Notes: generated by a model not told the origin, from the sequence alone. Shown: positions 6,404-49,075, counted from the stretch's first letter. The stretch is 64,000 bases of DNA from an uncultured Candidatus Saccharibacteria bacterium (GCA_964600295.1 CAZRIY010000001.1:169733-233732), one strand, 5' to 3'. Numbers and translations: made by a program.

Positions 6404-6406
6404 GGG

Positions 6407-8422: not shown

Positions 8423-8437
8423 CCTCCCAGCATCAAA

Positions 8438-11506: not shown

Positions 11507-11507
11507 G

Positions 11508-15645: not shown

Positions 15646-15662
15646 AGAACGGTGCGGCGAGC

Positions 15663-18339: not shown

Positions 18340-18402
18340 TACTATACTAGCCGCTGGGACAGCTTTCCACAACCCGGCTGCCGAAAGCCCCAACAAGCGC
18401 AA

Positions 18403-22860: not shown

Positions 22861-22897
22861 CGCGTTGGTACTAACAGTAGTTTATACTGATACCGAT

Positions 22898-23707
22898 ATG
22901 ACCGAAAGCAACCTGCTGGGCCACGTTTTTAGCAAGCAAAAACGTTCGTTGCTGCGGCAGCTGGTAATTACCGATTTTAAGTTGCGCTACCAGGGTTCGA
23001 TGCTGGGCTACCTTTGGTCGATAGTTCGGCCACTGGCCCTGTTTACCGTACTGTACTTCGTCTTTTCACATATCTTCCGTTTTGGTGACTCAATACCTGC
23101 GTACCCTGCCTATTTATTGCTTGGGATCGTAGTGTGGACCTTCTTTGTAGAGGCAACCAATATGGGCATGCAATCGATCGTTGGCAGGGGAGACTTAATC
23201 CGAAAGGTAACAATACCAAAGTGGACAATTGTACTATCCACGTCTTTTACGGCCTTTATTAATTTTGGGATTAATTTAATAGTTGCCATGATATTTGCCA
23301 TTCCCCTGGGCACGCAACTGATCGAAGGGATTTGGATATTACCCCTCTTAATTATCGAGCTGTTTGTTCTAGCAGTTGGCGTATCCTTCTTGCTGGCGGC
23401 CCTCTATGTGCGTTTTCGTGATATGGCCTTCATTTGGGAACTAATCTTACAAGTAGCCTTTTATGCTACGCCTATAATTTATCCTTTAAGCTTGGTCCCT
23501 GAACGCTTCCAAAAAATTATGCTATTCAATCCAGTGGCACAGATCATCCAGGATGCCCGCTATGTACTGGTGACACCCAAGACTACCACTGCCCCCCAGG
23601 TACTAGGGGCGTACAGCTTTGTTCCTATAGTTATTGTTTTGTCACTGGCGATACTGGCGGCTCTCTATTTTAGGAAAGCCTCGCGTGATTTTGCGGAGAA
23701 TGTTTAA
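22898..23707 (+). CDS. ABC-2 type polysaccharide exporter permease (Wzm/TagG-like)
   Basis: 6-TM ABC-2 permease. Start assigned to the internal Met (MTESNLLGHVFSKQKRSLLRQLVITDFKLRYQGSMLGYLW), because the track start 22742 would overlap the divergent GT2 gene. Confidence 0.75.
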   Translation: MTESNLLGHVFSKQKRSLLRQLVITDFKLRYQGSMLGYLWSIVRPLALFTVLYFVFSHIFRFGDSIPAYPAYLLLGIVVWTFFVEATNMGMQSIVGRGDLIRKVTIPKWTIVLSTSFTAFINFGINLIVAMIFAIPLGTQLIEGIWILPLLIIELFVLAVGVSFLLAALYVRFRDMAFIWELILQVAFYATPIIYPLSLVPERFQKIMLFNPVAQIIQDARYVLVTPKTTTAPQVLGAYSFVPIVIVLSLAILAALYFRKASRDFAENV

Positions 23708-24936: not shown

Positions 24937-24946
24937 TTCTAAGAGC

Positions 24947-26953: not shown

Positions 26954-26955
26954 GT

Positions 26956-28647: not shown

Positions 28648-28649
28648 GG

Positions 28650-29174
28650 TTATTGAATATCGATTGCTTTAGAAGTTGAAGTACCCTGTTTGTTATCTCC
28701 AGTAAAGTTGACCTGTACTTCCCACTCTCCCCTAACTGGGAATCGACTTTTTGCAATAGATATTTGACAAGCATAGTAATTGGTAACTCGATTAAGCGAG
28801 GCGTTCTCTTGAACTGACGCTTGACCCATTCGTGAAAATACCGCAGTACAGGTGCCGCTTGTAGCTCCATCTACTGTGGCTGTAACAATTATAGGATCAT
28901 CACTTCCCGACGCATATGTAACAGTAACAGTGACCGAACCCTGGGAGGGAGAATTATTAGATGTGCCTCCATTTGAAGCCGGCGTGCCATCCGGTTTGGG
29001 CTTGTCCACTTCCCTTGGTTGATTATCAGGGCTTTGTTGACCATTTTTATTCTGTTGATTGTCTGCGGGATTGGCATTGTCACCTCTACTTATTTGCCAA
29101 TACGCAAAAACGCCACCACCGATTAAGAGCGTCGCAACCACTGCTATTAAGATTTTTTTTCGGGGAATACCCAT
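28650..29174 (-). CDS. Hypothetical membrane-anchored low-complexity protein
   Basis: N-terminal TM (ILIAVVATLLIGGGVFAYW), then a Q/N/S/T-rich low-complexity region and a small C-terminal domain. Confidence 0.4.
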   Translation of the reverse strand: MGIPRKKILIAVVATLLIGGGVFAYWQISRGDNANPADNQQNKNGQQSPDNQPREVDKPKPDGTPASNGGTSNNSPSQGSVTVTVTYASGSDDPIIVTATVDGATSGTCTAVFSRMGQASVQENASLNRVTNYYACQISIAKSRFPVRGEWEVQVNFTGDNKQGTSTSKAIDIQ

Positions 29175-29236
29175 ATGTTTATTTTAGCAAGCCGTAAAAG
29201 CTAATAACTAAATACTGACATAAAAGGTAGCAAAAG

Positions 29237-31252
29237 TCAAAATAGCTTATAAATAAAAATATCCCTAGTGGGGTAATTTATTGTCTTGAGAAGCTGGGCG
29301 CAATTATCCTGGCCCTGAGTTCTAGCAACAGTTATTAAAAACCGAACATTATGATTTTTTAGAAAGTCGCTACACGGCTCTGTATTTACCTGGATATAGT
29401 CCTTATCTATTAATTTCAAGCTCGTAGGGGCTATAACGGCGGGGTTGCGATCAATCGTAAATATAATATGAGCATAGCGATTATATATGTTTTCATTTGA
29501 GTCCAAGCTTTTCCAGAGATCTAGCTGCGGATAGATATAAACTCCTGAGAGAGAAGGAGCGCCATTCGCAAGAGCCATATTCTCCAACAACAGGTCATCA
29601 CTAGCAATCCACCGGCCAGGATTGCTGAGAGATAACGCTCGAATCTCCCTCGAGAGAGATGAATCAGTAACTACCTCGAGCCCCCGATATAAAGGGTTAA
29701 CCCTACCGCTTGATAGTATTGAAAAAAGTAAGAATACAGCCATCGCCAAGGTAAATCTGCGGTTCAGAAGTAAATAAATAACTACAGGCACGGGAATAGA
29801 TAGGGCCAAAAACGTCGGCAGGCCAATAAAACCAGGAGATCTATTCATGGTAACAAGTCCTATGTATACCAGGAACGCGAAAACTACCAATGCATATACA
29901 GCGGTGATTTTGTGAAATTGCCGCGGAAGTTTATTTAACTTTAATAAATTACGAATAACTAGAACGGTGTGGATTATTCCCAGCAAGCCAACACCAATAA
30001 TAAGCCGACCGGGAGGTACTTTACCCATTAGGAATAAATTGAATAGCCAGTTTAGCCAGGGAGTGCACATCATTACTACTAACAGCAAGAAAGAACTAGT
30101 GGTAACTAAGAGTAACCAATCAATTTGTTTCCGTTTTCTGTAACCATTTATTAGTAGAAACATGGCAGGAAGAATAAAAAACGGAGTAAGTAATATAAAG
30201 TTCGATGATTCACTTTGATTTATAGGCTTAAAGGTGCCTTCACTAGGGAGATGGTACTGCGCAGCCCTTGGGTGTCGCTGAAATTGAACTGATAGATGGC
30301 TGGAAAATAAATGAGGCACATCAAACCCGCCACTCTCTGTATTACGAGTTCCAGGATATGCAGTGTTTTGAAGGGCATGGACAGCATCGAGTCGGGTCCA
30401 CAAGAAGCTAGCTGTGATTACTCCGGCGGTAACTACTGCCGTGGTAATAATCCCTAGATTTTGCCAAATTTGTTTTGTTGGCATATTTTTAATCTTTTTT
30501 ATAAAATATCCAAGGCCAAAAACCGCCATTGCCAGCGCACATGGAATCTGGAATGGCGGGTAAAGTATAAGAGCAAAACAGCTAACCACATAGGCTAGGA
30601 GAAAACCCCAAAACCACTTCCATCGAGTTCTCTTTTCTTCCAACAATTTTATTAAAATTGCCCCGGCAAAAAAACTATAATAAATTGAACCTACGGTTCC
30701 GTACACATACCACCACTGAATAAATGGGCTGAAGAAGAAAGCAACTGATAACAAAGCTGCCAACAGTTTTTTTGCCGGCAACAAAGCCAGCGTGAAAAGG
30801 TAGCAGCTAGTAATCAGCAAAAATCCCATCACCCACCATCTAAAGGCGAAAGCATTGTCAAGCGGCATTGCAAAAAAGGCCAGGTTGTGTGGTTTAAAAA
30901 TAATTGACCAATCTTTATAAGGTACATCTAGCAACAACGACACGTCTTGTCCGGCGCCAATATTCTGATTTATACGCTCGAAGTTACTATTTTTCTGGGC
31001 AATTGTCATTTGGGAGTTAACTTGCCACTCATCCGATCGAATCAACCGTGGCTCGCCCAGTAGCAGGTTCGGATCTTTTGCGGACTCCCCGTAAAAGTAG
31101 CTGTTATATGCACCAATCGAACTGCCGTGGATCTGAAACATTGTGAACAAGATTACTGGTATTGCCATAATCGCAGGAAACAGCCAAATACTATTCAGAA
31201 AACGGTTCATGATATTGGCGCCTTGAAGTTTTTGCTGAGAGAAAAGTGTCAT
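29237..31252 (-). CDS. Large polytopic membrane protein, possibly GT-C fold / YfhO-like glycan-modifying enzyme
   Basis: 671 aa with more than 12 predicted TM helices and periplasmic loops. Embedded in a glycan biosynthesis island. Family assignment is inference. Confidence 0.4.
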   Translation of the reverse strand: MTLFSQQKLQGANIMNRFLNSIWLFPAIMAIPVILFTMFQIHGSSIGAYNSYFYGESAKDPNLLLGEPRLIRSDEWQVNSQMTIAQKNSNFERINQNIGAGQDVSLLLDVPYKDWSIIFKPHNLAFFAMPLDNAFAFRWWVMGFLLITSCYLFTLALLPAKKLLAALLSVAFFFSPFIQWWYVYGTVGSIYYSFFAGAILIKLLEEKRTRWKWFWGFLLAYVVSCFALILYPPFQIPCALAMAVFGLGYFIKKIKNMPTKQIWQNLGIITTAVVTAGVITASFLWTRLDAVHALQNTAYPGTRNTESGGFDVPHLFSSHLSVQFQRHPRAAQYHLPSEGTFKPINQSESSNFILLTPFFILPAMFLLINGYRKRKQIDWLLLVTTSSFLLLVVMMCTPWLNWLFNLFLMGKVPPGRLIIGVGLLGIIHTVLVIRNLLKLNKLPRQFHKITAVYALVVFAFLVYIGLVTMNRSPGFIGLPTFLALSIPVPVVIYLLLNRRFTLAMAVFLLFSILSSGRVNPLYRGLEVVTDSSLSREIRALSLSNPGRWIASDDLLLENMALANGAPSLSGVYIYPQLDLWKSLDSNENIYNRYAHIIFTIDRNPAVIAPTSLKLIDKDYIQVNTEPCSDFLKNHNVRFLITVARTQGQDNCAQLLKTINYPTRDIFIYKLF

Positions 31253-31312
31253 TTAACAGATCTTAACATTAACCTATATAACAGGGTTCAGGAAAGCGTT
31301 AAAGAGGCAGAG

Positions 31313-31669
31313 CTATTTATTTAGATTAAGGAAAATCAACCCAATTAGGATTAAAGCTATTCCTACAACCTTAGTAAACGTAAAAACTTCGTTCAGGATG
31401 TAGAAAGATGCCAAAAAAACTAAAATATATACAAAAGCTGCCAATAGCGGGATGATATAACCAAGCTCATATTTGGAAATTAAATAAACGTATAATGCAA
31501 AGCTTAACCCATATAAGATTATGCCAACCACTGAGTACGGTGTTAAATTAAACTGAAGTTTGCTACCCCCCAAATATTTGAGCGGTGGGCCGGCCTTTGT
31601 TCCATACTTCAAGGCCACTAACGCTGCGGAAGTGGTTAGAATATACAAAGTAATAATAAGCTTTGACAT
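31313..31669 (-). CDS. Small 4-TM membrane protein (EamA/GtrA-like, possible lipid-linked sugar flippase subunit)
   Basis: 118 aa with four hydrophobic helices, adjacent to glycosyltransferases. Confidence 0.3.
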   Translation of the reverse strand: MSKLIITLYILTTSAALVALKYGTKAGPPLKYLGGSKLQFNLTPYSVVGIILYGLSFALYVYLISKYELGYIIPLLAAFVYILVFLASFYILNEVFTFTKVVGIALILIGLIFLNLNK

Positions 31670-31690
31670 CTTATGTATTGTATATCCAAC

Positions 31691-32920
31691 TTAGCTGAAA
31701 ATAAAACTATAGAGCTTATTTAGGATAAGGTTTCTTTCAAAATGTTTGAAGTGATAGGCTCTGCCTCGAGCGCCCATCTTTCGCCTCTCTATGCGCGACA
31801 ATTCGTAAACTTTCCTAATATTAGCAGCTAGGGTTTGGACATCTTCGGTCGGACCGGCAAATCCGCACTGGATAGTCTTATTCACGAGATCCCGTGCTTC
31901 GCCATCTATAGCCAGAACCATTGGTTTTCCAGCTGCAAAATATGACGTTACCTTTGACGGTATTGTGGCTTCCAGCAGTTCACTTTTTACCAAACAGCCG
32001 ATTAATAGATCTGCTACCCCCATGTACTTAGGCATATCCGTAATCGGTTTTTGGCCCTCGAAATAGAAGCTATCGATAAGGCCGGCCTGTTTTACCTCTT
32101 CTTCTAGCCATTTACGCGACATACCATCACCAACAATTATCCAATTGATGTTATTGATCCCAGTTGAATGTAGCCGCTTGGCCGCATCAATAATTGTATT
32201 GAATGACTGAGCTGGGCTGATGTTTCCAGTGAAGACAATGTTAAAACCTGGTTTGAACTTGGCCACTAGTTTCTCATCATGTATGTCCTTTTCATAGATT
32301 TTTTCGGGGGCCTGAGGTAAGACGATAATTTTGTCGCTGGGTTTCTTGGTAATACCCTGCAATTTTATTTTCATTTGTCCGGATAATGTTACTAGCTTAT
32401 CGGTGTTCCGATAATGCCAGTGAGACACTACGGCGGCTATTTTTCTTAACGCTTTATTTTTTACTTTAATTACCGAATATAGATTTTCAGGCCAAAGATC
32501 AAGTACATACATGGTGGTTTCAATTTTCTTAATTTTTCCAACAAGTATGCCGGCAATAGCCATCATCACTGGAGAAAGTTGATAGATAAAAATCTCATCG
32601 TATCTTTTTGTTAACAATCTTGGCACATGGAATAAGCTTGCAAGAGGGAAGGAGATATAATTCAAAAAAATTCGGATGTTTGAGTTATTACCTCGCGGGA
32701 ACTCGAAGACCCGGCGGATGTTTATGCCATTGTACCTTTGCTTTCGGTTGCGGAAATATCCATATCCATGGAAGATTCTACCCGTAGGATAGTTGGGAAT
32801 TCCGCATAAAACATCGATCGCGACATTTCGTTCAACTAAATAATCACAAATATCGTTTATTCGAAATGACTCCGGCCAGAAGTGCTGCCCGATTATTAGA
32901 ATTTTCTTTTTTGGTTGCAT
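31691..32920 (-). CDS. Glycosyltransferase family 1, WbuB-like (L-FucNAc transferase type)
   Basis: N-terminus KILIIGQHFWPESFRINDICDYLVERN is typical of WbuB/WbjE. Genetically linked to fnlABC. Confidence 0.7.
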   Translation of the reverse strand: MQPKKKILIIGQHFWPESFRINDICDYLVERNVAIDVLCGIPNYPTGRIFHGYGYFRNRKQRYNGINIRRVFEFPRGNNSNIRIFLNYISFPLASLFHVPRLLTKRYDEIFIYQLSPVMMAIAGILVGKIKKIETTMYVLDLWPENLYSVIKVKNKALRKIAAVVSHWHYRNTDKLVTLSGQMKIKLQGITKKPSDKIIVLPQAPEKIYEKDIHDEKLVAKFKPGFNIVFTGNISPAQSFNTIIDAAKRLHSTGINNINWIIVGDGMSRKWLEEEVKQAGLIDSFYFEGQKPITDMPKYMGVADLLIGCLVKSELLEATIPSKVTSYFAAGKPMVLAIDGEARDLVNKTIQCGFAGPTEDVQTLAANIRKVYELSRIERRKMGARGRAYHFKHFERNLILNKLYSFIFS

Positions 32921-32946
32921 TTTTATAGACTGTCTTTTACAAAGTA

Positions 32947-33837
32947 CTACTTTAGGCTATATGGCCTATTTGCTAGTAGAAAATTATTATTATCTCGATT
33001 CAACAGCGTCTCTACGCCCGAAATTCTCGAAATCAACTTCTTCCGCTCATCAATAGAGTAACAGTATTTGAAAATGTTGAGCATTTCGCGCGCTACATAT
33101 TCAGGGCTTTTGCCAGCACGTCTAATGTAGTCAGCGGAAAATTCAGTCAACAGCATAATATCTGTATTGCTAAAAGTTCTTTTTGCGCCATCAAGCGCGT
33201 GTCCCTCGTAACCCTCGATATCCATTTTAACGAAGCCCACTTTTAACCTATGGGTAGATACAAAGCTGTCTACTGTATCGACTTTCACAGAAATTGAATT
33301 CGATGGACGCGCACCAATGTAGTGGGTAGCGAGATCATCTTTAACAAGAGATATTTCTACCTCTCCCTGTTTGTCGCCAATAGCGCAGTTTACAATATGT
33401 ACATTGGACGTGTTATTAAGTTCTAAATTGTGTTTTAACAGTCTCAAGTTTTCAGGTACTGGTTCAAATGCATATACGGCACCCGTGTCACCAATTTTCT
33501 CGCTGGCGATAATGGAATATATCCCAATGTTTGCTCCAATATCCAGTACTGTCATACCGGGCTGGAGTATTTTCTCGTATAGTTCAAGCTCAAACTCCTC
33601 AAAGTATTGGTTAATAAGTGCAGGCACTATTGAGATATCTTTTGTACGCACGAGTAACTTTTTCCCCCTGAACAATATTTCTTGCTCACCCTCAACTCTT
33701 CCTAGGTAGAAAATCTTTCTGTAAATCCAAGTCGTTATGGGTAAACGGTAAACCCAAGTATTGAGGAAATACTTCCTCGATATCTTAATAACATACATCG
33801 ATACGAGTTCAATGAAATTCGATTTCTTAATCTTCAT
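32947..33837 (-). CDS. FkbM-family SAM-dependent methyltransferase
   Basis: VLDIGANIGIYSI SAM-binding motif; 296 aa; FkbM-type. Confidence 0.7.
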   Translation of the reverse strand: MKIKKSNFIELVSMYVIKISRKYFLNTWVYRLPITTWIYRKIFYLGRVEGEQEILFRGKKLLVRTKDISIVPALINQYFEEFELELYEKILQPGMTVLDIGANIGIYSIIASEKIGDTGAVYAFEPVPENLRLLKHNLELNNTSNVHIVNCAIGDKQGEVEISLVKDDLATHYIGARPSNSISVKVDTVDSFVSTHRLKVGFVKMDIEGYEGHALDGAKRTFSNTDIMLLTEFSADYIRRAGKSPEYVAREMLNIFKYCYSIDERKKLISRISGVETLLNRDNNNFLLANRPYSLK

Positions 33838-33848
33838 CCTCCCAATGT

Positions 33849-34973
33849 TTATTTATCCCAGACGACTTTGTTAACAATTTTAGTGTAGCTTTGGATTATC
33901 TTTATAACCTTAGTAGATACGTTTGTATCACGATAGTTGGGGGGGAGATTGAACGTTTCTTGGTTCTGTCTTAGATCTCGAGATAACTCAATAGCTTGTT
34001 CTATGTCGATTTCTTCGATGCCGCCCAAGATGATCGACCCCGCGTCAAGGGTTTCCGGCCTTTCGGTTGAGGTCCTGATCAAAATCCCATCAAAACCCAG
34101 AATAACGCTCTCCTCGGATAATGTCCCGCTGTCAGATAAAACACAGAGGGCGTTAAGTTGGAGGTGGTTATAATCAAAGAACCCAAATGGCTTTAGAATC
34201 TGGACCAGTTTATGCAATTTAAATCCACTTTTTTTGATCCTGTCGAGACTGCGAGGATGGGCGGAATAAATTATGGGCAATTGATGTCTTTCGGCGATAT
34301 CATTTATGGCGCTCATCAAGGAATTAAAATTAGTCTCGTCATCAATATTCTCTTCCCTATGGGCAGAAACAAGAATGTACTTATCTTTTTTTAGCTTCAA
34401 CTTCTCTAGAATATTGCTTTCCTTAATTTTTTCTATATGGGCATGTAGAACTTCGGGTAGCGGAGAACCCGTGACAAATATATGTTCTTTTCGTAACCCC
34501 TCCGCAAGCAAATATCTGCGCGAATGTTCAGTGTAGGGAAGATTAATATCAGAGATGTGATCAACGATCTTTCTATTTATTTCCTCGGGGACGTTTTGGT
34601 CGAAACAGCGATTCCCGGCTTCCATATGAAAAATTGGAATCTTCAAACGTTTAGCCGGTATCGCCGATAACGCACTGTTTGTGTCGCCCAGTATCAAGAG
34701 AGCATCTGGCTTTTCGCGAAGCAACACTTTATAGCTGCCGGCAATAATGTTGCCTATAGTCTCTCCGAGGTTCTTGCCTACGCTTTTTAGATAGTGATCA
34801 GGTTCTCTCAGTTTGAGGTCTTCAAAGAAAACCTGGTTTAAGGTATAGTCCCAGTTTTGCCCAGTATGTACCAAAATATGGTCAAAGTACTGATCGCACC
34901 GCTTAATAGTTTCTGACAGCCTGATGATTTCGGGCCTGGTACCAACTATGGTCATTAACTTCAGCTTCTTCAC
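33849..34973 (-). CDS. fnlC: UDP-N-acetylglucosamine 2-epimerase (non-hydrolysing), FnlC/CapG/WbjD-type
   Basis: N-terminus MKKLKLMTIVGTRPEIIRLSETIKRC and overall length 374 aa. Positioned after fnlA-fnlB. Confidence 0.8.
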   Translation of the reverse strand: MKKLKLMTIVGTRPEIIRLSETIKRCDQYFDHILVHTGQNWDYTLNQVFFEDLKLREPDHYLKSVGKNLGETIGNIIAGSYKVLLREKPDALLILGDTNSALSAIPAKRLKIPIFHMEAGNRCFDQNVPEEINRKIVDHISDINLPYTEHSRRYLLAEGLRKEHIFVTGSPLPEVLHAHIEKIKESNILEKLKLKKDKYILVSAHREENIDDETNFNSLMSAINDIAERHQLPIIYSAHPRSLDRIKKSGFKLHKLVQILKPFGFFDYNHLQLNALCVLSDSGTLSEESVILGFDGILIRTSTERPETLDAGSIILGGIEEIDIEQAIELSRDLRQNQETFNLPPNYRDTNVSTKVIKIIQSYTKIVNKVVWDK

Positions 34974-36086
34974 TTAAACCTCTAAAGAATATGTGTCAGG
35001 GCTGGCAGGGTTAAATACTTCATCAGCCCAGAATAATGTTATTAGTTCACTTTTTCCGGTATTAGTAATTGAGTGAGTATAGCCAGGAGGGATATCAATT
35101 ACCTTAAGCTTCTCACCGCCCACCCTATAGGTAACAGTTTTTGGTGAGCTTATACGCCTAAGTTTAATTAGGGCCTTCCCCTCGACTACCAAGAATTTTT
35201 CGACCTTGGTATGATGCCAATGATTACCCCTGGTTACGCCGGGATTCGTTCTGGATACGAAAATCTGGCCGAATTGTTTTGATTTAATAAACTCAGCCAA
35301 CCATCCCCGGTTGTCTTTTTTCATTTCCAAATTATGGTCCAATTTCTTCTCGGGCAAATACGAGGCGTAGGTGGCGTATAATGCTCGATCAAAATAGCTT
35401 TCAAAATTTGGTATCAAAAGGGTTTGGCGGCTTCTTTGAAAAGAATAAATTTTATCGGTAAGCTCCCGAAGTGTGATAGGGAAGTCTCGCGGGATCTGAT
35501 AAAAACCTTGTTTCAAGGTTTGTTTTTCACCGCGCATGGACTTGATAAATTCACCTACGACATCATCTATGTAAACAAGCTGCAGTTCCGAATCAGGGTC
35601 GTTAATCTTTATATCCAGGTTATTGGCAATGTTGTAACAAAAAGTTGCTACAACCGAATTGTAGTTGGGTTTGCACCACTTACCGAAGACATTAGGTAGT
35701 CTATAAATGTAAGCGCTTGTCTTGGCCGATCCCGCCCAACTGTGTACAGCATCCTCTGCTGCCTTTTTACTTTTCCCGTATGAATTATCAAGCTCTGCCT
35801 GGGTTGATGAGGCTAGCAGGACAGGTGTTTTAAGACCTTCCTCTCTCATTATGTCTAAGAGCGTTTGGGTTAACTCAAAGTTACCTTTCTCAAATTCGGA
35901 CTCATTTTTTGGCCGGTTGACTCCAGCTAAGTGGAAAATAAAATCTGCTTTATTTATGAACTTCTTTAAGTCTGTAACTGAATGGTTTCTATCAAAACGA
36001 AGGGTTTCAATATCTTCATATTTTTCTAAGGTTGCACGCAGATTCTTACCAATAAAACCTGACGAACCGGTTACTAATACCTTTAT
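34974..36086 (-). CDS. fnlB: FnlB/CapF/WbjC-type bifunctional reductase/epimerase, apparent non-canonical (ATA) start
   Basis: The track ORF (34974..35849, starting MREEGLK) lacks the Rossmann motif. The upstream in-frame sequence IKVLVTGSSGFIGKNLRATLEKYEDIETLRFDRNHSVTDLKKFINKADFIFHLAGVNRPKNESEFEKGNFELTQTLLDIM is intact back to a TAA stop. No ATG/GTG/TTG exists there; ATA at 36084..36086 overlaps the fnlA stop (ATATAA). Confidence 0.65.
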   Translation of the reverse strand: MKVLVTGSSGFIGKNLRATLEKYEDIETLRFDRNHSVTDLKKFINKADFIFHLAGVNRPKNESEFEKGNFELTQTLLDIMREEGLKTPVLLASSTQAELDNSYGKSKKAAEDAVHSWAGSAKTSAYIYRLPNVFGKWCKPNYNSVVATFCYNIANNLDIKINDPDSELQLVYIDDVVGEFIKSMRGEKQTLKQGFYQIPRDFPITLRELTDKIYSFQRSRQTLLIPNFESYFDRALYATYASYLPEKKLDHNLEMKKDNRGWLAEFIKSKQFGQIFVSRTNPGVTRGNHWHHTKVEKFLVVEGKALIKLRRISSPKTVTYRVGGEKLKVIDIPPGYTHSITNTGKSELITLFWADEVFNPASPDTYSLEV

Positions 36087-37111
36087 ATCAGTTCTCCCTC
36101 TATACCCTTAAGCTCGTCTCGGATGTAGTCAGTTGTGAGTAGCTTATTCATAACTTCATCTACATTGAGTCTTGTGGTGTTGTCAGATGTATATTCAGTT
36201 GCTTCCTCTACTATATGGCTACCCTTAATGAAGAATTGAGCATAGTTTAGATCCCTGGTGTCTGCCGGAACCCGGAAATAGCCTTTGAGGTTCTTGCTGT
36301 TGCCCCGCTCCTCTTTAGTAAGTAGAGTTTCATGCAGCTTCTCACCATGCCGGGTACCGATAATTTTTATATCAGTCTTAGACTTGAACAGCTTTTTAAT
36401 AGCCCGGGCCAGGTCTCCAATCGTACTGGCTGGAGACTTTTGGACGAATAAATCGCCCTGCTTGGCATTGCTAAAGGCAAACAGAACCAAATCAACAGAA
36501 TCATCTAGGTTCATCAAAAACCTAGTCATATCTGCATCGGTGATGGTAATGGGCCCTCCGGTTTTCACTTGCTCCACAAATAATGGGATAACCGAGCCAC
36601 GAGAAGCCATAACATTGCCGTAGCGAGTCACACAGATGATAGTCTTGGTAGGATCAACATTTCGTGATTTTGCCTCGGCCACTCGCTCCATCATGGCTTT
36701 TGATATGCCCATGGCGTTAATGGGATAGGCGGCCTTATCAGTAGAGAGACAAATAACTTTCTTTACGTTTTCCTTAATGGCGGCTTCAAGAACATTGTCT
36801 GTCCCGATGATGTTGGTGCGGACCGCCTCCATAGGGAAGAATTCACACGAAGGAACTTGCTTTAGAGCGGCGGCGTGAAAGACATAGTCAACTCCAGCCA
36901 TGGCTTCTCTCACGCCCTCAAAATTTCGCACATCTCCAAGATAGAACTTTACCTTGTCACTCTTTAAGCTTTTTCGCATGTCGTCTTGTTTTTTTTCGTC
37001 TCGCGAGAAAATGCGGATCTCCTTGACGTCAGTATTCAAAAAACGTTTTAGAACCGCGTTTCCGAATGATCCTGTGCCGCCTGTGATCATCAGGGTCTTA
37101 CTCTTAAACAT
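36083..37111 (-). CDS. fnlA: UDP-GlcNAc 4,6-dehydratase/5-epimerase FnlA/CapE/WbjB-type
   Basis: N-terminus MFKSKTLMITGGTGSFGNAVLKRF, 342 aa, polysaccharide-biosynthesis SDR. Confidence 0.85.
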   Translation of the reverse strand: MFKSKTLMITGGTGSFGNAVLKRFLNTDVKEIRIFSRDEKKQDDMRKSLKSDKVKFYLGDVRNFEGVREAMAGVDYVFHAAALKQVPSCEFFPMEAVRTNIIGTDNVLEAAIKENVKKVICLSTDKAAYPINAMGISKAMMERVAEAKSRNVDPTKTIICVTRYGNVMASRGSVIPLFVEQVKTGGPITITDADMTRFLMNLDDSVDLVLFAFSNAKQGDLFVQKSPASTIGDLARAIKKLFKSKTDIKIIGTRHGEKLHETLLTKEERGNSKNLKGYFRVPADTRDLNYAQFFIKGSHIVEEATEYTSDNTTRLNVDEVMNKLLTTDYIRDELKGIEGELI

Positions 37112-37172
37112 GAAACTCTTTCCACTTATTATTCAAAGTGAATATTAACAGATTTGTCCTATTATATCTTAA

Positions 37173-37541
37173 TCATTTTTTAGACTCTTCTTTGGACAAC
37201 CGAATCGATAGTTCTTGATGGAGATCTTGAACCCGTCGTTCGAGGGCATCGTTTCTAACATATGCTTCATGGGCAATAAAAAACGTGAAAGTGATTCCAG
37301 TAATCTGGATGACGTCAAACAGACTTAGCGGTTCGGTTTGAGTCAACTGGTGGGAAAACAAAAAAGCGTAGATAGGTTCCGCAAAGACAATGCCTCCCAA
37401 TATGCTTGACCAAAATATAATCCTGAAGATAAATCTACGTCGGCTAGTTTGACCAAGCTTGTAAGCGGTAATTGCGCTGACAATGCCAGCTGCGATCAAT
37501 GGAGTGTTAAGGATTATTAATATTAGATATCTACTCACCAA
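37173..37541 (-). CDS. DUF2304-family small membrane protein
   Basis: 122 aa, 3-4 TM plus a C-terminal coiled-coil. Typical partner located immediately downstream of DPM-synthase-like GT2 genes. Confidence 0.5.
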   Translation of the reverse strand: MVSRYLILIILNTPLIAAGIVSAITAYKLGQTSRRRFIFRIIFWSSILGGIVFAEPIYAFLFSHQLTQTEPLSLFDVIQITGITFTFFIAHEAYVRNDALERRVQDLHQELSIRLSKEESKK

Positions 37542-38229
37542 AAATCTCCATCACCCGCCTCTTAAACAGAGATTTTATTATATTGAATGCGTTCCAGTTA
37601 TTTTGTCCCTTCGACTTTGAATAGTCAGTATAGATAGCCTTAATTGGGTATTCTTTAACGCTCAAGCGCAGTTGCTTGGCTCGCCACAGCATTTCAGAAC
37701 CAAAATCGAACCCGCTAGCTTTCCATCTGAGTTGCTCCAGGGCCTTTTGGGAAAAAATCCTTAAGCCTGTTTGAGAATCAGTAACCCTAATACCGAACAA
37801 AAGGCCGGTAATCAAGCTCAAGCTCTTATTGCCAAATACCTTCGCTCTTGACATGCCACGTTTATCAATCAGTCTGCTGCCGATCAGGAGATCGCCATCC
37901 CCACTATTAATTAATTTTATGCCCTTAATAACATCATTCGCGTCATGTTGACCGTCGGCATCAAGTGTGGCTGCCAGGTCAAAGTTATTTCGCTGGGCAT
38001 AGTTTAGACCAGTAGCCGTGGCGCTACCGGTGCCGGTATTTAAGATGTGACGGATGACATAAGCCCCAGCTTGTCTAGCCACTTGGGCGGTAGTGTCATT
38101 TGAGCCGTCATCGACAACGATTATTTGATATTTGTGGGTTGTCTCAGAAAAGGCTGACTTAAGGCCAGCGATTACAGTTTTGATGACTGTCGCTTCATTA
38201 TAAGCCGGCATAACCACAGCGACTCTCAA
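37531..38229 (-). CDS. GT2 polyprenol-phosphate glycosyltransferase (DPM1/GtrB-like)
   Basis: MRVAVVMPAYNEATVIKTVIAGL...VVDDGSNDTT GT-A motif; 232 aa. Confidence 0.8.
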   Translation of the reverse strand: MRVAVVMPAYNEATVIKTVIAGLKSAFSETTHKYQIIVVDDGSNDTTAQVARQAGAYVIRHILNTGTGSATATGLNYAQRNNFDLAATLDADGQHDANDVIKGIKLINSGDGDLLIGSRLIDKRGMSRAKVFGNKSLSLITGLLFGIRVTDSQTGLRIFSQKALEQLRWKASGFDFGSEMLWRAKQLRLSVKEYPIKAIYTDYSKSKGQNNWNAFNIIKSLFKRRVMEIFGE

Positions 38230-38302
38230 TATGGACTCCTAAATCTCCCAAGAATGAATTATTCAAACTATATTACATTAGAGAAAAGATGCCTACATGT
38301 CT

Positions 38303-44756: not shown

Positions 44757-45374
44757 ATGAAACAAAGCCTCACCAAAAAGCAAAAATTCCTGCTCGATTT
44801 TATTCGTAAATTTACCGCCGATAATGGCTATCCCCCCAGTTTCCGCGAGATTATGGAGGGCTTGAATTATAGTTCTGTAGCCACAGTTGCTCAACACGTT
44901 GATAACCTAGTAGCCAAGGGTTATTTGCACAAGCGCGATAATGAAGCTCGCTCAATTCAATTAGTGGAGGCCGATGTGGAAATGAGTGGCGGCAGTGATT
45001 TACCGGTGCTGGGGCTGATTGCCGCCGGCGAACCCATCACGGTTATGGATGAAACCAAAGAAACCCTGATGGTACCGCCCTTTATGATCAAGAGTGATAA
45101 TTCTTATGTACTGCGGGTAAAAGGCAACAGCATGATAGACGACGGTATTCTAGATAAAGATTACATTGTGGTACGCGAGAACAAAGCTCCCAAAAACGGT
45201 GAAGTGGTGGTGGCTATGCTCAATGGCTACTCGGCCACTCTCAAGCGCTTCTATAAAGAAGGCAGTAAAATTCGGCTGCAGCCCGCTAATTCAAGCATGA
45301 AGCCGATAATTTTAGACGAAAACGATTTTTTGGAAATCCAAGGTATCGTTACCGGAGTTATCCGCAGCTTCTAA
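44757..45374 (+). CDS. lexA: LexA repressor (S24 peptidase)
   Basis: N-terminal wHTH (YPPSFREIMEGLNYSSVATVAQHVDNLVAKGYL), cleavage site and catalytic VKGNSMIDDGI (Ser) and K (SATLKRF). Start at the internal ATG 44757; the track ORF 44640 has a spurious N-terminal extension. Confidence 0.85.
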   Translation: MKQSLTKKQKFLLDFIRKFTADNGYPPSFREIMEGLNYSSVATVAQHVDNLVAKGYLHKRDNEARSIQLVEADVEMSGGSDLPVLGLIAAGEPITVMDETKETLMVPPFMIKSDNSYVLRVKGNSMIDDGILDKDYIVVRENKAPKNGEVVVAMLNGYSATLKRFYKEGSKIRLQPANSSMKPIILDENDFLEIQGIVTGVIRSF

Positions 45375-45457
45375 AAAGAGTCATTGATATGATTTATCTG
45401 TATACCATGCAGGCTAACTGGTGCTGATTTAAAGCGCCAGTTATACTTTTAAGACAT

Positions 45458-45532
45458 TCCGGAGTAGCTCAATGGTAGAGCACCGCCCTGTTAAGGCGAT
45501 GGTTGCCGGTTCGAGTCCGGCCTCCGGAGCCA
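45458..45532 (+). tRNA. tRNA-Asn (anticodon GTT)
   Basis: 75-nt cloverleaf: acceptor TCCGGAG/CTCCGGA, D-arm GCTCAATGGTAGAGC, anticodon loop CTGTTAA, T-arm GCCGGTTCGAGTCCGGC and encoded CCA. Confidence 0.85.
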
Positions 45533-45534
45533 TG

Positions 45535-45567
45535 AAAAAACGCTAGTCACATCGACTGGCGTTTTTT
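45535..45567 (+). terminator. Rho-independent (bidirectional-type) terminator hairpin after tRNA-Asn
   Basis: AAAAAACGCTAGTC-ACATC-GACTGGCGTTTTTT: a GC-rich stem flanked by an A-tract and a T-tract. Confidence 0.6.
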
Positions 45568-45652
45568 CATTAATTCGCAGTCTGCGAAACGAACCGAGCC
45601 CATAGGGCCGGTTCAGATAACAGCGGCTATATACTGAGCACAGCGAGGTAAT

Positions 45653-45671
45653 AGTCCGGCCTCCGGAGCCA
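45653..45671 (+). repeat. 19-nt direct repeat of the tRNA-Asn 3-prime end (att-like remnant)
   Basis: AGTCCGGCCTCCGGAGCCA at 45653..45671 is identical to tRNA positions 45514..45532. Confidence 0.7.
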
Positions 45672-45713
45672 AGCATGGCATGAGCTGCTGTGTTTATTTG
45701 ATACACTAAAACT

Positions 45714-45923
45714 ATGCAAAAGATAGCTACACGATTATTTATCTATTCGTCAATTGTTTTTGGTGTCCTAGGGCTTTTTATGGTTCTGACTGGGATCGAT
45801 CCGGATGAAAATAGCTCCGGCCTTGAGCTAGTCATAACGAAACTCTTTATGGCCACCATTTTTATCATCCTGCCTTCATTCGCATTAAGTGTTGCTAGTA
45901 AGTACTTAAACGGTAAATCTTAG
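45714..45923 (+). CDS. Small 2-TM membrane protein (cassette gene A)
   Basis: 69 aa MQKIATRLFIYSSIVFGVLGLF...ILPSFALSVASKYLNGKS. A paralog lies at 47133..47321. Confidence 0.5.
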   Translation: MQKIATRLFIYSSIVFGVLGLFMVLTGIDPDENSSGLELVITKLFMATIFIILPSFALSVASKYLNGKS

Positions 45924-45951
45924 TTCCAACTTCCTCCACTACGGGGAGCCA
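45924..45951 (+). repeat. Recurrent post-stop ~30-nt motif, copy A (TTCCAACTTCCTCCACTACGGGGAGCCA)
   Basis: Begins 1 nt after the TAG of gene A. Confidence 0.6.
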
Positions 45952-45990
45952 TAAAACTGGGTACGAGCAATTGAGGTATGATTCTTTTAG

Positions 45991-46155
45991 ATGAATAAAA
46001 GTAGAATAATATACTTCGTTCTCGCAATATTATTCGGAGTATTTATGTTTGTATATGGTGAAATTGATGATAGTCCCGGTGGGCAACTGCTCGGACTTCT
46101 CGCAGTCATTATCGGCATAATTGGCGTGATAAAGGGCACGAAGAATTCTGGCTAA
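45991..46155 (+). CDS. Small 2-TM membrane protein (54 aa), unannotated in ORF track
   Basis: ATG 45991 ... TAA 46153..46155 encodes MNKSRIIYFVLAILFGVFMFVYGEIDDSPGGQLLGLLAVIIGIIGVIKGTKNSG. It is followed immediately by the recurrent 30-nt motif. Confidence 0.35.
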   Translation: MNKSRIIYFVLAILFGVFMFVYGEIDDSPGGQLLGLLAVIIGIIGVIKGTKNSG

Positions 46156-46158
46156 ACA

Positions 46159-46188
46159 GGTTCTAACTTCCTCCACCACGGGGTGCTA
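46159..46188 (+). repeat. Recurrent post-stop motif, copy B (GGTTCTAACTTCCTCCACCACGGGGTGCTA), followed by the 12-nt palindrome GTGCTATAGCAC
   Basis: Begins 4 nt after the TAA of the 54-aa ORF. Confidence 0.6.
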
Positions 46189-46261
46189 TAGCACAAGTGC
46201 GGTTAAGAGCTTGATAAGGCATTCTTTGTTATGATTAATCTATGTAAATAAGGAGGATCGC

Positions 46262-46654
46262 ATGGCAGAAATAGAAGAAAACGTGAAGGAGACCGAAGTT
46301 TCCCAGCAGGGGGACACGCAAGTAGTGCGGCAACGCACCTCTACTGATTCAAGCCAAGATTCCCGTTTAACTCTTGCTAATGCTGTTTGGTTCCTACTCG
46401 GTGTGCTGGAGGTTTTGCTGGTCTTCCGGCTTTTTCTCAAGCTTTTCGGAGCCAATCCAGATAGTGGTTTTGTAAGCTTTGTTTACACAGTAACTAGCGG
46501 TTTTACAGCCCCTTTTAGGGGTATATTCAGTACGCCGACCACCCAGGGTGACATCACTACTTCGGTGTTCGAAACGGGTACCCTGCTGGCTATGATAGTT
46601 TACGCATTAATCGGCTGGGGACTAGTGAAACTAGTCAACCTAAATAAAAGATAA
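46262..46654 (+). CDS. YggT-like small membrane protein (cassette gene B)
   Basis: 130 aa; the FTAPFRGIFSTPTTQGDITTSVFETGTLLAMIVYAL segment resembles the YGGT-family core. Acidic N-terminal tail. GGAGG RBS upstream. A paralog lies at 47996..48388. Confidence 0.45.
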   Translation: MAEIEENVKETEVSQQGDTQVVRQRTSTDSSQDSRLTLANAVWFLLGVLEVLLVFRLFLKLFGANPDSGFVSFVYTVTSGFTAPFRGIFSTPTTQGDITTSVFETGTLLAMIVYALIGWGLVKLVNLNKR

Positions 46655-46686
46655 CCCCGTTCCTGAAAGTTCAATAGTACTAACGA

Positions 46687-46716
46687 AGTTCTAACTTCCT
46701 CCACTATGGGGAGCCA
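46687..46716 (+). repeat. Recurrent post-stop motif, copy C (AGTTCTAACTTCCTCCACTATGGGGAGCCA)
   Basis: Begins 33 nt after the stop of gene B. Confidence 0.6.
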
Positions 46717-46796
46717 AACTTCTGATGTTTTTAAACGCTAACAGTACAGCTTTACCAAAAATTTTCATTTGCAGGTAGGATAGCTAAAATAAACTT

Positions 46797-47108
46797 ATGG
46801 CCAAAAAAGAAATCGCTACTAGTGTGGTGCATAGAGTGCCAGCGGATTTGAGAAAGGTTTTGACATCTGCCCCCGAGGTGCGAGCAGCATGGGAGGATAT
46901 TACGCCACTCGCACGCAATGAGTGGATCTGCTGGGTCGTTTCCGTCAAGAAACCAGCGACGAGAAGTGACCATATCAAGAGGGTACGCACAGAACTTCTA
47001 GACGGAAAGCGCCGACCTTGTTGTTGGGCCGGCTGCATTCATCGCACGGACAAATCGATAAGCCCGTCGGTGCAGTGGGCGCTCAATAGACAACCTAAGT
47101 CCAAGTAG
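46797..47108 (+). CDS. YdeI/OmpD-associated (OmdA-like) family small protein
   Basis: 103 aa; ARNEWICWVVSVKKPATRSDHIKRVRTELLDGKRRPC resembles the OmdA domain. Inserted between the two copies of the duplicated cassette. Confidence 0.4.
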   Translation: MAKKEIATSVVHRVPADLRKVLTSAPEVRAAWEDITPLARNEWICWVVSVKKPATRSDHIKRVRTELLDGKRRPCCWAGCIHRTDKSISPSVQWALNRQPKSK

Positions 47109-47132
47109 CAACAAGCTTGTTATAATAAGCTC

Positions 47133-47321
47133 GTGCAAAAAATAGCTACACAAATATTTATCTACGCCTCAATTGCATTTGGAGTTTTGGGAGTTTTAGT
47201 TGCTCTGACGCAGCCTGATGAAAATGAAATACTTGCAAAACTTCTGTTTGCAACGGTTTTTATTATACTGTCCTCATTCGCATTAAGTGTTGCTAGTAAA
47301 TACTTAAACGGTAAATCATAG
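47133..47321 (+). CDS. Small 2-TM membrane protein (cassette gene A-prime, paralog of 45714..45923)
   Basis: 62 aa MQKIATQIFIYASIAFGVLGVLVALTQPDENEILAKLLFATVFIILSSFALSVASKYLNGKS. The C-terminal 20 aa are identical to gene A. Confidence 0.5.
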   Translation: MQKIATQIFIYASIAFGVLGVLVALTQPDENEILAKLLFATVFIILSSFALSVASKYLNGKS

Positions 47322-47327
47322 CATTAA

Positions 47328-47813
47328 ATGTCTATAAGCAAGGGGTCTAATAACATGAAAACTATCACGCCGAATCTATGGTTCGACGGCAAGGCAAAAG
47401 AGGCCGTGGATTTTTACATATCTGTGTTTCCAGACAGTAAAATAATCTCCACAATCAATTATCCAAACAGTGCCGAGGAAGGTTTGGCTGATTTCCAAAA
47501 GGACCTCGCTGGCAAAGTGCTCACGATAGACTTCGAGCTAAGCGGCAACCGTTTCGTGGCCATTAACGCTGGACCCGAGTTTAAATTTAACGAATCTGTG
47601 TCTTTTTCGATTCCTTGTGAAGATCAGGAAGAGATTGATTACTACTGGGAAAAACTTTCTAAAGTCCCGGAATCTGAACAATGTGGTTGGTGTAAAGACC
47701 AGTATGGCCTTAGCTGGCAAGTTGTACCGAAGCACATGGAAGAATTAATGAAGCGCCCGAATGCTTTTGCTAATTTGATGCAGATGCACAAAATTGTTAT
47801 TGAGGATTTTTAA
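47328..47813 (+). CDS. PhnB-like VOC/glyoxalase-fold protein (3-demethylubiquinone-9 3-methyltransferase domain family)
   Basis: ITPNLWFDGKAKEAVDFYISVF ... CGWCKDQYGLSWQVVP are hallmark motifs of the PhnB-like family. The likely start is the internal Met at 47355 (MKTITPNLWF). Confidence 0.65.
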   Translation: MSISKGSNNMKTITPNLWFDGKAKEAVDFYISVFPDSKIISTINYPNSAEEGLADFQKDLAGKVLTIDFELSGNRFVAINAGPEFKFNESVSFSIPCEDQEEIDYYWEKLSKVPESEQCGWCKDQYGLSWQVVPKHMEELMKRPNAFANLMQMHKIVIEDF

Positions 47814-47862
47814 GTTCGTTCACTATCAAGCGTTATCAAATCGCAGAGTAACCCATTAATGC

Positions 47863-47880
47863 GGTTCTAACCTGTCTACC
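47863..47880 (+). repeat. Recurrent motif, degenerate copy D (GGTTCTAACCTGTCTACC), followed by (GGCT)4
   Basis: Lies downstream of the PhnB-like gene stop. Confidence 0.4.
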
Positions 47881-47995
47881 GGCTGGCTGGCTGGCTTCCA
47901 TCACTAGGAGAGCCAAAATATTTACGCTTATTTTGCTGATATAATTAACCGTGAGCTTAGATCTAGTAAAATATCTCTAGAACAAGGAGGATCCC

Positions 47996-48388
47996 GTGGC
48001 AGAAATAGAAGAAAATGTAAAAGAAACCGAAGTTTCCCAGCAGGGCGACATGCAAGTAGTTCGAGAACGCACTTCCACTGATTCAAGCCAAGATACACGA
48101 TTGACTTTGGCTAATGCTGTTTGGTTTTTAGTTGGCTTGATGGAGTTTCTGTTGGCCTTTCGGCTTCTACTTAAGCTTCTTGGGGCCAATCCGTCCAGCG
48201 GTTTTGTAAGCTTTGTATATACAGTAACTAGCGGTTTCACCGCCCCTTTTAGAGGTATATTCAGTACGCCGACCACCCAGGGCGACATTACTACTTCGGT
48301 ATTCGAAACAGGCACCTTACTAGCTATGGTAGTCTACGCATTAGTCGGCTGGGGTGTAGTAAAACTCGTTAATCTCAATAAGAAATAA
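47996..48388 (+). CDS. YggT-like small membrane protein (cassette gene B-prime, paralog of 46262..46654)
   Basis: 130 aa, GTG start; about 85% identical to gene B (MAEIEENVKETEVSQQGD...). Confidence 0.45.
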   Translation: MAEIEENVKETEVSQQGDMQVVRERTSTDSSQDTRLTLANAVWFLVGLMEFLLAFRLLLKLLGANPSSGFVSFVYTVTSGFTAPFRGIFSTPTTQGDITTSVFETGTLLAMVVYALVGWGVVKLVNLNKK

Positions 48389-48419
48389 TTGCGTTACTAA
48401 AAATTCAACAGGGCTAACG

Positions 48420-48449
48420 GAGTTCTAACTTCCTTCACCATGCGGATCC
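48420..48449 (+). repeat. Recurrent post-stop motif, copy E (AGTTCTAACTTCCTTCACCATGCGGATCCA)
   Basis: Begins 32 nt after the stop of gene B-prime. Confidence 0.55.
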
Positions 48450-48460
48450 ATAACCCACGC

Positions 48461-49075
48461 TTATTCAGACAATTTTAGTGACGAGAAGAAAATCGTAAAA
48501 TCATCGTAATAGCGCTGATTATCAGAAGCCAAGCTTTGGCAGTAGGCAATCACCTGGTTAACGTTGCCCAGCGCTATTATTTCAACTCTTTTAATTTTTG
48601 AACCCCCTTCTGTATACAAGATTTCTAGTAGTATTCCTTGGGCTTCACCAAATTTTACGGGATTTAGGGCGGTTGACTCGTTGGCGACTACGGCATCTGG
48701 ATGAACCTTTCTCACCTCGTCCATAATTCCATTGCGTAACTCCTCACCCGTCGCAGATCCTCTCCCTGCCAACTTAGTCTGAGACACAATACATTGTGCG
48801 TTTGGGTCATCATTTGGCCTAAAACCATAAGTAAACCCCGGGTTCATGGCCGCCAGCTCTTCTCTGGGAATCGTCTCGAATTTCTTGCTCATGTTAAAAG
48901 AAAGGCCGGTTGAACTATCGGAAATTGTATTGTAATTAGTAGTTTGAGTTTCAGACTTATTTTCTGGAGCCTTATTAAAAGCACTAAACCAAACAGCTAG
49001 TGCAATAAGCACTAGCAAAAGAGCCAGGTATAAAAGCTTTCTTTTGGTCAAAATACTTCTGAGTACCTTTCGCAT
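48461..49075 (-). CDS. Hypothetical membrane-anchored/secreted protein
   Basis: 204 aa with N-terminal TM (LLYLALLLVLIALAVWFSAF); no recognised domain. Confidence 0.35.
   Translation of the reverse strand: MRKVLRSILTKRKLLYLALLLVLIALAVWFSAFNKAPENKSETQTTNYNTISDSSTGLSFNMSKKFETIPREELAAMNPGFTYGFRPNDDPNAQCIVSQTKLAGRGSATGEELRNGIMDEVRKVHPDAVVANESTALNPVKFGEAQGILLEILYTEGGSKIKRVEIIALGNVNQVIAYCQSLASDNQRYYDDFTIFFSSLKLSE

Follow-up and report, generated by a model that had tools for sequence, protein, structure and literature searches.

How did a perfect copy of the last 19 nt of a tRNA gene come to stand 120 bp downstream of that gene, and what does it record about the genes that follow? We addressed this question for the tRNA-Asn gene downstream of lexA in a 64,000-nt stretch of DNA, hereafter the window, from a single genome of the Saccharimonadales (Saccharibacteria/TM7, Patescibacteria). 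Saccharibacteria and other bacteria of the candidate phyla radiation (CPR) have tiny genomes with few recognisable mobile elements, and their acquisition of accessory genes is poorly understood. Our analysis suggests that the 19-nt repeat is probably an attachment-site (att) relic heading a variable island, anchored on tRNA-Asn and built by serial site-specific integration.

The 3′ end of tRNA-Asn is duplicated in a 139-bp unit

The region between lexA and the second copy of the repeat comprises the following features.

44757..45374, + strand: lexA, forming the conserved left border of the hotspot discussed below; its product is exactly 205 aa long and has LexA_DNA_bind and Peptidase_S24 domains
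45415..45443, + strand: terminator-like hairpin between lexA and the tRNA gene, in a block conserved in the related loci L022 and L004 (z = 18-26)
45458..45532, + strand: tRNA-Asn (GTT), the island anchor, called by ARAGORN and Rfam (71 bits) and the only tRNA called there
45514..45532, + strand: repeat copy 1, the last 19 nt of tRNA-Asn, located by sequence search
45532..45570, + strand: terminator hairpin right after the tRNA, found as an inverted repeat and by folding, with 17-nt arms that are 94% complementary and a T-run behind them
45571..45652, + strand: remaining spacer, without an open reading frame (ORF), with hairpins at 45574-45588, 45591-45614 and 45625-45656
45653..45671, + strand: repeat copy 2, an exact duplicate of the 3′ 19 nt of the tRNA and a candidate displaced-fragment or attR-type site

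The 19-mer, AGTCCGGCCTCCGGAGCCA, occurs exactly twice in the window, both times on the + strand; further copies with up to three mismatches were absent from the window, and 100 dinucleotide-preserving shuffles yielded 0. The spacer measures 120 nt (45533-45652) and the repeat period 139 nt. Identity sets in at the fifth T-loop base (TTCG/AGT) and ends exactly at CCA: at its left edge the tRNA reads GGTTCG/AGTCC and the copy GGTAAT/AGTCC, and the sequences after each CCA differ, the one directly after copy 2 reading AGCATGGCATG from 45672 onward. Such geometry is classical for what we take to be a displaced tRNA fragment. Without its terminator the spacer folds with a minimum free energy of -38 kcal/mol (z = -3.66), matched by 0/200 shuffles. 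Searching 45300-48700 against Rfam returned nothing credible besides the tRNA itself even at E <= 10, and the spacer matches no family.

The first-pass annotation had described a tRNA-Asn with a perfect 19-nt repeat of its 3′ end 120 bp later and had read this partial duplication as a signature of integration. ARAGORN and Rfam, the exact search and the shuffles agree on the former, and the T-loop-to-CCA geometry, together with the variability of the locus among relatives, supports the latter. It had also allowed that the 19-mer might be a dispersed repeat, which did not prove to be the case: both copies in the window lie at this locus, and IMG/VR contains 0 matches.

The arrangement resembles that of genomic islands in tRNA genes (Reiter 1989; Williams 2002; Islander, PMC4383910). 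An intact tRNA gene (tDNA) is accompanied on its 3′ side by a co-oriented piece of its own 3′ end, identity between the two extends from the T-stem/T-loop region to the last base of the tRNA, the regenerated gene has a terminator behind it, and the locus varies among relatives. Unlike these islands, the two copies here are separated by only 120 bp holding neither ORF nor integrase, so that the integrase filter of Islander would reject the locus.

Related loci share the upstream flank and diverge after tRNA-Asn

We compared the window with about ten related loci on contigs chosen through the LexA orthologues that they encode (LexA identity to the window of 87% for L022, 75% for L003, 71% for L004 and 67% for L006). 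Homologues of the window LexA are annotated as Saccharimonadales LexA, and in most of the fetched contigs tRNA-Asn adjoins or lies near lexA. The closest relative among the loci examined is L022 (ENA ERZ27256841 k141_1361984). Scans of genome collections (species representatives) gave 0 matches to LexA peptide patterns and 0 to the exact 75-nt tRNA, meaning either that no close relative is among the species representatives or that the relevant stretch is masked there.

Pairwise z scores were calculated for the 90 nt on each side of the tRNA gene. The upstream 90 nt are conserved among the window, L022 and L004 (z = 18-26), and the downstream 90 nt are unrelated in 28/28 pairwise comparisons (z about 0). 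In L022 the tRNA gene is directly followed by the promoter and start of cassette C, a gene of the array described below, and L022 has neither the spacer and repeat nor cassettes A and B; the locus thus displays, beside a conserved upstream flank (z = 25) and an unrelated downstream one, the presence/absence polymorphism that is expected of Islander-type islands. The loci L006, L004 and L026 carry runs of small accessory genes after tRNA-Asn. Directly after the tRNA-Asn of L003 stands a prophage- or satellite-like block (L003:7914-15053) encoding a 97-aa protein, a large serine recombinase (LSR; Resolvase + Recombinase + Zn_ribbon_recom), a terminase large subunit, a ParB-N6/N4 methylase, an HNH protein, an S24 peptidase repressor and a helix-turn-helix protein. 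Its LSR gene lies ~470 bp from tRNA-Asn, and the tRNA tail is not duplicated. An integration hotspot had been proposed for this locus on first inspection, with a comparison across strains as the check; the conserved upstream flank and the unrelated downstream sequences bear this out, and the locus is not invariant, since L022, L003 and L002 all differ downstream of the tRNA.

A second tail duplication was found in L002, a different species whose tRNA-Asn has another T-stem and acceptor stem. Here the 18-nt tail of the tRNA itself, GTCCGCCCCCAGGAGCCA, recurs with a period of 174 bp, and the identity block begins one base later than in the window. As the L002 spacer is not a collinear homologue of the window spacer (p ~0.5 with terminators excluded), we regard the two duplications as independent events of the same kind. 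The two spacers have only short words in common, for example AGATAACAGCGGCTAT and GAGCAC[AT]G. The best local match between spacer and tRNA is the start of the T-stem/T-loop, GCCGGTTC, which is not significant (p = 0.085 and 0.79) and in both window and L002 makes up the 3′ arm of a GAACC...GGTTC hairpin.

The word GAGCAC[AT]G is found downstream of three tRNA-Asn genes (window 45574-45652, L002:15025-15136 and L020:11025-11053), and AGTCTGC occurs together with the GAACC...GGTTC hairpin in window and L002, where the order of the words differs and the alignment is not significant. These short words common to the regions downstream of tRNA-Asn could be protein-binding sites.

Four independent assemblies end inside tRNA-Asn or at most 29 nt after it, one of them, whose contig matches the window at 100% identity, breaking off at position 48 of the tRNA; we consider these breaks weak evidence of strain heterogeneity. 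A strain with 100% identity is contained in SRR6868922. Strain-level rearrangement of cassettes was not seen, the same-species assemblies L006, L007 and L008 being identical and informative on this point only through their contig break at the tRNA.

The tRNA-Asn of the window is identical at 74/75 positions to that of L003 and at 70/75 to that of L006, and at only 59/75 to that of L022, where the differences include compensatory changes in three stems and the upstream flank is conserved. Because similarity of the tRNA does not track relatedness, the whole tRNA gene, or the tRNA together with its downstream region, appears to have been exchanged between lineages. In addition, at L022:1300-2127 a RelB-like/RelE-like toxin-antitoxin pair interrupts lexA within its last ~7 codons. 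With the insert comes a recoded lexA end, GTCATCAGGTCTTTCTGA, still encoding VIRSF-stop, and the original end, CGGCGTTATCCGCAGCTTCTAA, identical to that of the window, is displaced ~680 bp downstream to a position immediately before the conserved pre-tRNA block. Judged by its sequence, this insertion is a second apparent signature of a regenerated gene plus displaced 3′ fragment at the locus.

A 29-nt tRNA-tail-like site separates the genes of the downstream array

A further site, which the first-pass annotation did not mention and which is more distinctive than the 19-nt repeat, sits between the small genes of 45.7-48.45 kb. We term it D2; it reads GTTCTAAC-TTCC-N10-GGAGCCA, or GTTCYAAYTTCC-N10-RGAGCCA as a degenerate pattern. 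The array is composed as follows.

45714-45923, + strand: cassette A, a 69-aa membrane protein; D2 site at 45923-45951, GTTCCAACTTCCTCCACTACGGGGAGCCA; whole cassette 45714..45951
45991-46155, + strand: cassette B, a 54-aa membrane protein; D2 site at 46160-46188; whole cassette 45991..46188
46262-46654, + strand: cassette C, a 130-aa YGGT-like protein (Pfam); D2 site at 46688-46716; whole cassette 46262..46716
46797-47108, + strand: OmdA/YdeI-like gene (Pfam)
47133-47321, + strand: A′, a paralogue of A by repeat comparison
47328-47813, + strand: PhnB-like gene of the 3-dmu-9_3-mt family (Pfam)
47864-47915, + strand: long D2 variant with a 23-nt insert after GTTCTAAC, from the motif scan
47996-48388, + strand: cassette C′, a paralogue of C; D2 site at 48422-48450, the last recognisable one of the array

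D2 resembles the T-loop-to-CCA segment of the tRNA, GTTCGAGTCCGGCCTCCGGAGCCA, but spans 29 nt as against 24 nt in the tRNA, and this length is exact in 8/8 clean copies (two species). It also follows cassettes in L006 and L004, bringing the species to three with the window. The window contains five copies (starting at 45923, 46160, 46688 and 48422, plus the variant at 47864-47915), L006 at least five and L004 two, all on the + strand. This orientation is kept even beside genes of the - strand (L006 15471; L004 13842). The OmdA gene lies on the - strand in L002 and L004, abutting a ...GAGCCA site, and is inverted in the window. A position weight matrix (PWM) scan of ~200 kb gave 11 D2 matches against ~1.5 expected from shuffles, all 11 on the strand of the tRNA and inside arrays downstream of tRNA-Asn; since 10/11 were training sites, the informative part of this result is the absence of matches elsewhere.

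The conserved 3′ end of D2, GGAGCCA, is also the end of every tRNA-Asn variant examined, whatever its stems. Looser relics with the tRNA-type spacing of 24 nt are found at L006 11891-11914 and L026 8404-8427, and in the arrays GAGCCA occurs 19 times on the tRNA strand versus 7 times on the opposite one (p = 0.029), at a density of 0.72/kb versus 0.27-0.37/kb in controls. Repeat copy 2 stands before the next cassette in the position that the D2 sites take elsewhere and that the tRNA end takes in L006 and L022. Taken as a whole, D2 behaves as a putative arm plus core without symmetry, the pattern expected of a hybrid (attR-type) junction.

Other identities for D2 were considered and rejected. 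It is too short (29 nt) for an integron attC and has neither the R″/R′ inverted pair nor a GTTRRRY partner; as an intrinsic terminator it lacks a T-run and received no terminator call; and the right flanks offer no inverted arm (all p > 0.1) that would make it a symmetric full recombination site. A folded RNA or single-stranded DNA element was not convincing, the covariation being weak. Counts from a consensus promoter/terminator scan were at background and uninformative.

Duplication within the array is evident. The stretch 45714-45923 resembles 47133-47321, and 46262-46654 and 47996-48388 share 84% DNA identity, the homology of C and C′ passing through D2 and ending at its CCA. A homologue of cassette A adjoins the tRNA-tail repeat in L002. 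The earlier description of this DNA as full of duplicated small cassettes is thus sustained by the likeness of A to A′ and of C to C′. Its description as lower in guanine-plus-cytosine content (GC) holds against the flanks (0.42-0.45 over 45-49 kb versus ~0.48-0.51), the difference being only modest and other parts of the window lower still. A surface-polysaccharide cluster at 22700-38300 has a GC of 0.39-0.45, and low GC alone therefore does not single out the array.

Serial integration at tRNA-Asn as the favoured explanation

In the scheme that we favour, a site-specific recombinase acting in trans would have joined an incoming DNA circle to the T-loop/T-stem region of the tRNA gene. This circle would have given the tRNA its present 3′ end plus the strong terminator, and the original 3′ end would have been pushed downstream to 45653-45671. 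Because the copies enclose only 120 bp of DNA, rich in hairpins and devoid of ORFs, the 139-bp unit may be regarded as an integrase-less miniature element, either a deletion remnant resembling a cis-mobilizable element (CIME) or an att-only element; the collapse suggested in the first-pass annotation and an element miniature from the outset would fit it equally. Older insertions would have accreted downstream as single-gene or few-gene modules, newcomers pushing older ones outward. On the 3′ side of each module D2 would represent an element-borne core arm (attR-type junction) that mimics the T-loop-to-CCA segment, with the invariant GGAGCCA as the likely common core of the D2 sites and tRNA-Asn. 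The type of recombinase, the position of the crossover and the order of events are what we infer; a tyrosine integrase is suggested by the geometry of the repeat alone. Islander found a 3′ tDNA fragment in 3,760/3,919 islands and a crossover in the T-stem region in 1,836 (PMC4383910), serial integration leaving partial tRNAs is documented in tycheposon islands (bioRxiv 10.1101/2020.12.28.424599), and integrase-less att-flanked remnants are documented elsewhere (PMC5704250).

Several observations weigh against this scheme. None of the 50 ORFs of the window contains a tyrosine or serine recombinase domain at the sensitivity of Pfam, consistent with the earlier remark that the window has no integrase, and none was found within 10 kb downstream in L006, L004 and L026. 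Viral, phage and plasmid searches did not recover an element with both an integrase and a matching attP. The sole recombinase found at the locus in a relative, that of L003, is of the serine type. Serine recombinases exchange at a 2-bp core and do not generate 19-bp repeats. D2, being 5 nt longer than the true tRNA tail, is not a simple displaced host fragment, and no dyad symmetry was found at its right flank; its role as an element-borne arm is a model. Lastly, the 120-156 bp kept between the copies in both lineages are odd for random deletion.

Given that no recombinase lies near the arrays, the enzyme would act in trans, be encoded elsewhere or no longer be present. The serine recombinase protein of L003 had 0 relatives in IMG/VR, and blastn of the spacer plus array against phage and plasmid collections gave no match. 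The D2 pattern matched a single viral contig, the 488-kb L017, whose tRNA scan yielded tRNA-Pyl only; we take this match as chance. Also dismissed as chance were eight metagenome matches (L009-L016) to an N11 version of D2, which itself has N10; two of these have a GC of 0.69-0.70, and the L012 match falls within a 453-aa ORF of the opposite strand.

Alternative explanations

The main alternative, possible if rather unlikely, is an active integron-like platform for gene capture on tRNA-Asn, in which the D2 copies would be attC-like cassette sites and a recombinase in trans would shuffle single-gene cassettes. Its attI-like primary site would be the GGAGCCA end of tRNA-Asn, or else the duplicated 19-mer serving as a decoy that spares the tRNA. 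The modules are indeed small, mostly co-oriented and single-gene, with a cargo of GNAT, glyoxalase/PhnB-like, zeta/AAA_33 kinase, DUF1801, OmdA and small membrane proteins. Each has one D2 of fixed length and constant orientation, at which the C/C′ homology ends. The families C, OmdA, A and 3-dmu appear in differing orders and orientations between genomes, and the 19-mer, the D2 sites and the tRNA end hold equivalent positions upstream of cassettes. The array also shares with integron arrays and clusters of attC sites lacking integron-integrases (CALINs) the succession of short co-oriented genes, each followed by a site in fixed orientation, some of them duplicated, with no integrase nearby. 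Unlike an integron, however, the array begins at a tRNA gene, and the window has neither IntI nor attI with a cassette promoter (Pc); near the examined arrays, too, recombinases of the IntI-like or any other kind were not found. Integron attC sites are imperfect palindromes of 55-140 nt with R″ (RYYYAAC) and R′ (GTTRRRY), whereas D2 is 29 nt long, asymmetric and tRNA-like. On direct reading of the sequence the cassettes seem to carry promoters of their own, with -10-like boxes and ribosome-binding sites. Typical integron cassettes are promoterless. Finally, L006 and L007 are identical, giving no sign of strain-level rearrangement, and many sites of L006 and L026 are degenerate, which fits relics more than working sites.

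Decidedly improbable is a role at the RNA level, whereby the spacer with its tail copy, and D2, would act as tRNA-like 3′ elements for processing, stability or recognition by CCA-adding enzyme or RNase. The better-than-shuffled folding of the spacer (z = -3.66) and the position of most D2 copies just past the stop codons of + strand genes would fit such a role, as would the T-arm-like hairpin that several copies can form with the 4-5 nt upstream of them, and the short TCC/GGA helix, which shows some covariation (25/33 cells paired versus 11-20/33 in shifted controls). Covariation is weak overall, however, helices H1/H2 being 61-64% paired versus 39-59% in controls, no Rfam family was found at E <= 10, and D2 has neither T-run nor terminator call. 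It stays on the + strand beside - strand genes at L006 15471 and L004 13842, and both the hotspot signature and the presence/absence polymorphism would be left unexplained.

We consider it very improbable that copy 2 is the tail of a decayed tandem tRNA-Asn duplicate, or the product of slippage or gene conversion without a mobile element. Bacteria commonly carry tandem tRNA duplicates, and the two copies here are close together and co-oriented. Comparison of the tRNA body with the 56 nt before the copy nevertheless shows agreement at only 12/56 ungapped positions (best local match 8 nt, p = 0.085), L002 is likewise at chance level (14/57), and a 19/19 tail with all other similarity lost is unexpected of a pseudogene. 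A strong terminator stands between the copies, L022 lacks the whole unit together with two cassettes, and D2 would remain unexplained.

Large serine recombinases reportedly show a 5-bp offset between their attB and attP half-sites, as described by Rutherford and Van Duyne. That the sites are such half-sites, with the central GC of GGA-GC-CA as core, the tRNA tail as a 20-bp attB-type and D2 as a 25-bp attP-type arm, is highly improbable as well: the LSR gene ~470 bp from tRNA-Asn in L003 and the lengths of D2 and the tRNA segment (29 versus 24 nt, distal GTTC.AA and proximal GGAGCCA being common to both) speak for it, but no inverted partner lies to the right of any D2 or tRNA end (all p > 0.1), L003 has no D2 at a PWM score >= 14, and exchange at a 2-bp core would not create exact repeats of 18-19 nt.

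Relation to known systems

Serial integration at tRNA-Asn, the explanation that we favour, has counterparts among described elements. CIMEs and the accretion of integrative and conjugative (ICE) or integrative and mobilizable (IME) elements (Pavlovic 2004; PMC5704250) likewise involve att-flanked units without integration or transfer genes, in tandem at one target; here the 19-nt sites are identical and enclose 120 bp of non-coding DNA with no such genes. The accretion model of integration, decay and new integration at the resident att site would yield an array of this kind. Known CIMEs are, however, kilobases long and derived from ICEs, whereas the present unit measures 139 bp and the modules are small and single-gene, without an ICE or IME backbone, and the viral, phage and plasmid searches turned up no parent element.

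The tycheposon islands of Prochlorococcus (bioRxiv 10.1101/2020.12.28.424599) share the streamlined genome and the tRNA-anchored island with scattered partial tRNAs, seen here as extra partial-tRNA repeats beside the tRNA in the form of the tails and the GAGCCA bias. Those islands use tyrosine or large serine recombinases, include many remnants without an integrase, and have newcomers that push older elements outward. The window differs in lacking the hallmark genes (L003 has an LSR, a terminase, a ParB-methyltransferase and an HNH protein at the same tRNA), in its much smaller modules, and in having a 29-nt tail mimic besides true partial tRNAs.

Recurrent targeting of tRNA-Asn by different islands is also reported at the asn tDNA hotspots of Klebsiella pneumoniae (PMC4891358). 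These are large, integrase-bearing virulence islands at several asn tDNAs of a proteobacterium, unrelated to the present locus in sequence and scale. For Saccharibacteria we found no description of tRNA-linked islands in the searchable literature, nor for the CPR one of integron-like arrays.

Other features of the window and its relatives

An intergenic segment of the L006 array (L006:15560-15620) contains GGTTCGAGTCCGATCGCCCTCAG, which is T-arm-plus-acceptor-like, lacks CCA and is unlike the tRNA-Asn of that genome; it may derive from the tail of a different tRNA. In the window, the surface-polysaccharide cluster of 22700-38300 encodes a Wzm/Wzt ABC transporter, several GT2/GT4 glycosyltransferases, an FkbM methyltransferase, a UDP-GlcNAc 2-epimerase, Polysacc_synt_2 and DUF7657/DUF7654. 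A type IV secretion-like block (4575-12719) comprises a PrgI family protein (4575-5417), a TraG/VirB4-like P-loop ATPase (6407-8422) and an M23 peptidase with an SLT domain (11442-12719), together with large ORFs without a Pfam match at 1915-4566 and 8438-11506. As recF-like (SMC_N), dnaN and dnaA follow each other on the - strand at 14596-18402, the window probably contains the replication origin region.

Implications for Saccharibacteria

The 3′ side of tRNA-Asn emerges as a site of gene acquisition common to several Saccharimonadales lineages, and the locus offers a searchable 29-nt signature and a minimal att-flanked unit of 139 bp. If the sites are relics only, they present a clear case of serial integration and decay in a streamlined genome, parallel to the tycheposon islands. 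If they are active, they would form a tRNA-anchored counterpart to integron-style cassette capture, and, should the integron-like reading be true, a platform for cassettes whose evolution in ultra-small episymbiotic bacteria was independent of that of integrons. Active sites would, in addition, constitute a natural landing pad and a route to the recombinase, useful for the emerging genetics of Saccharibacteria.

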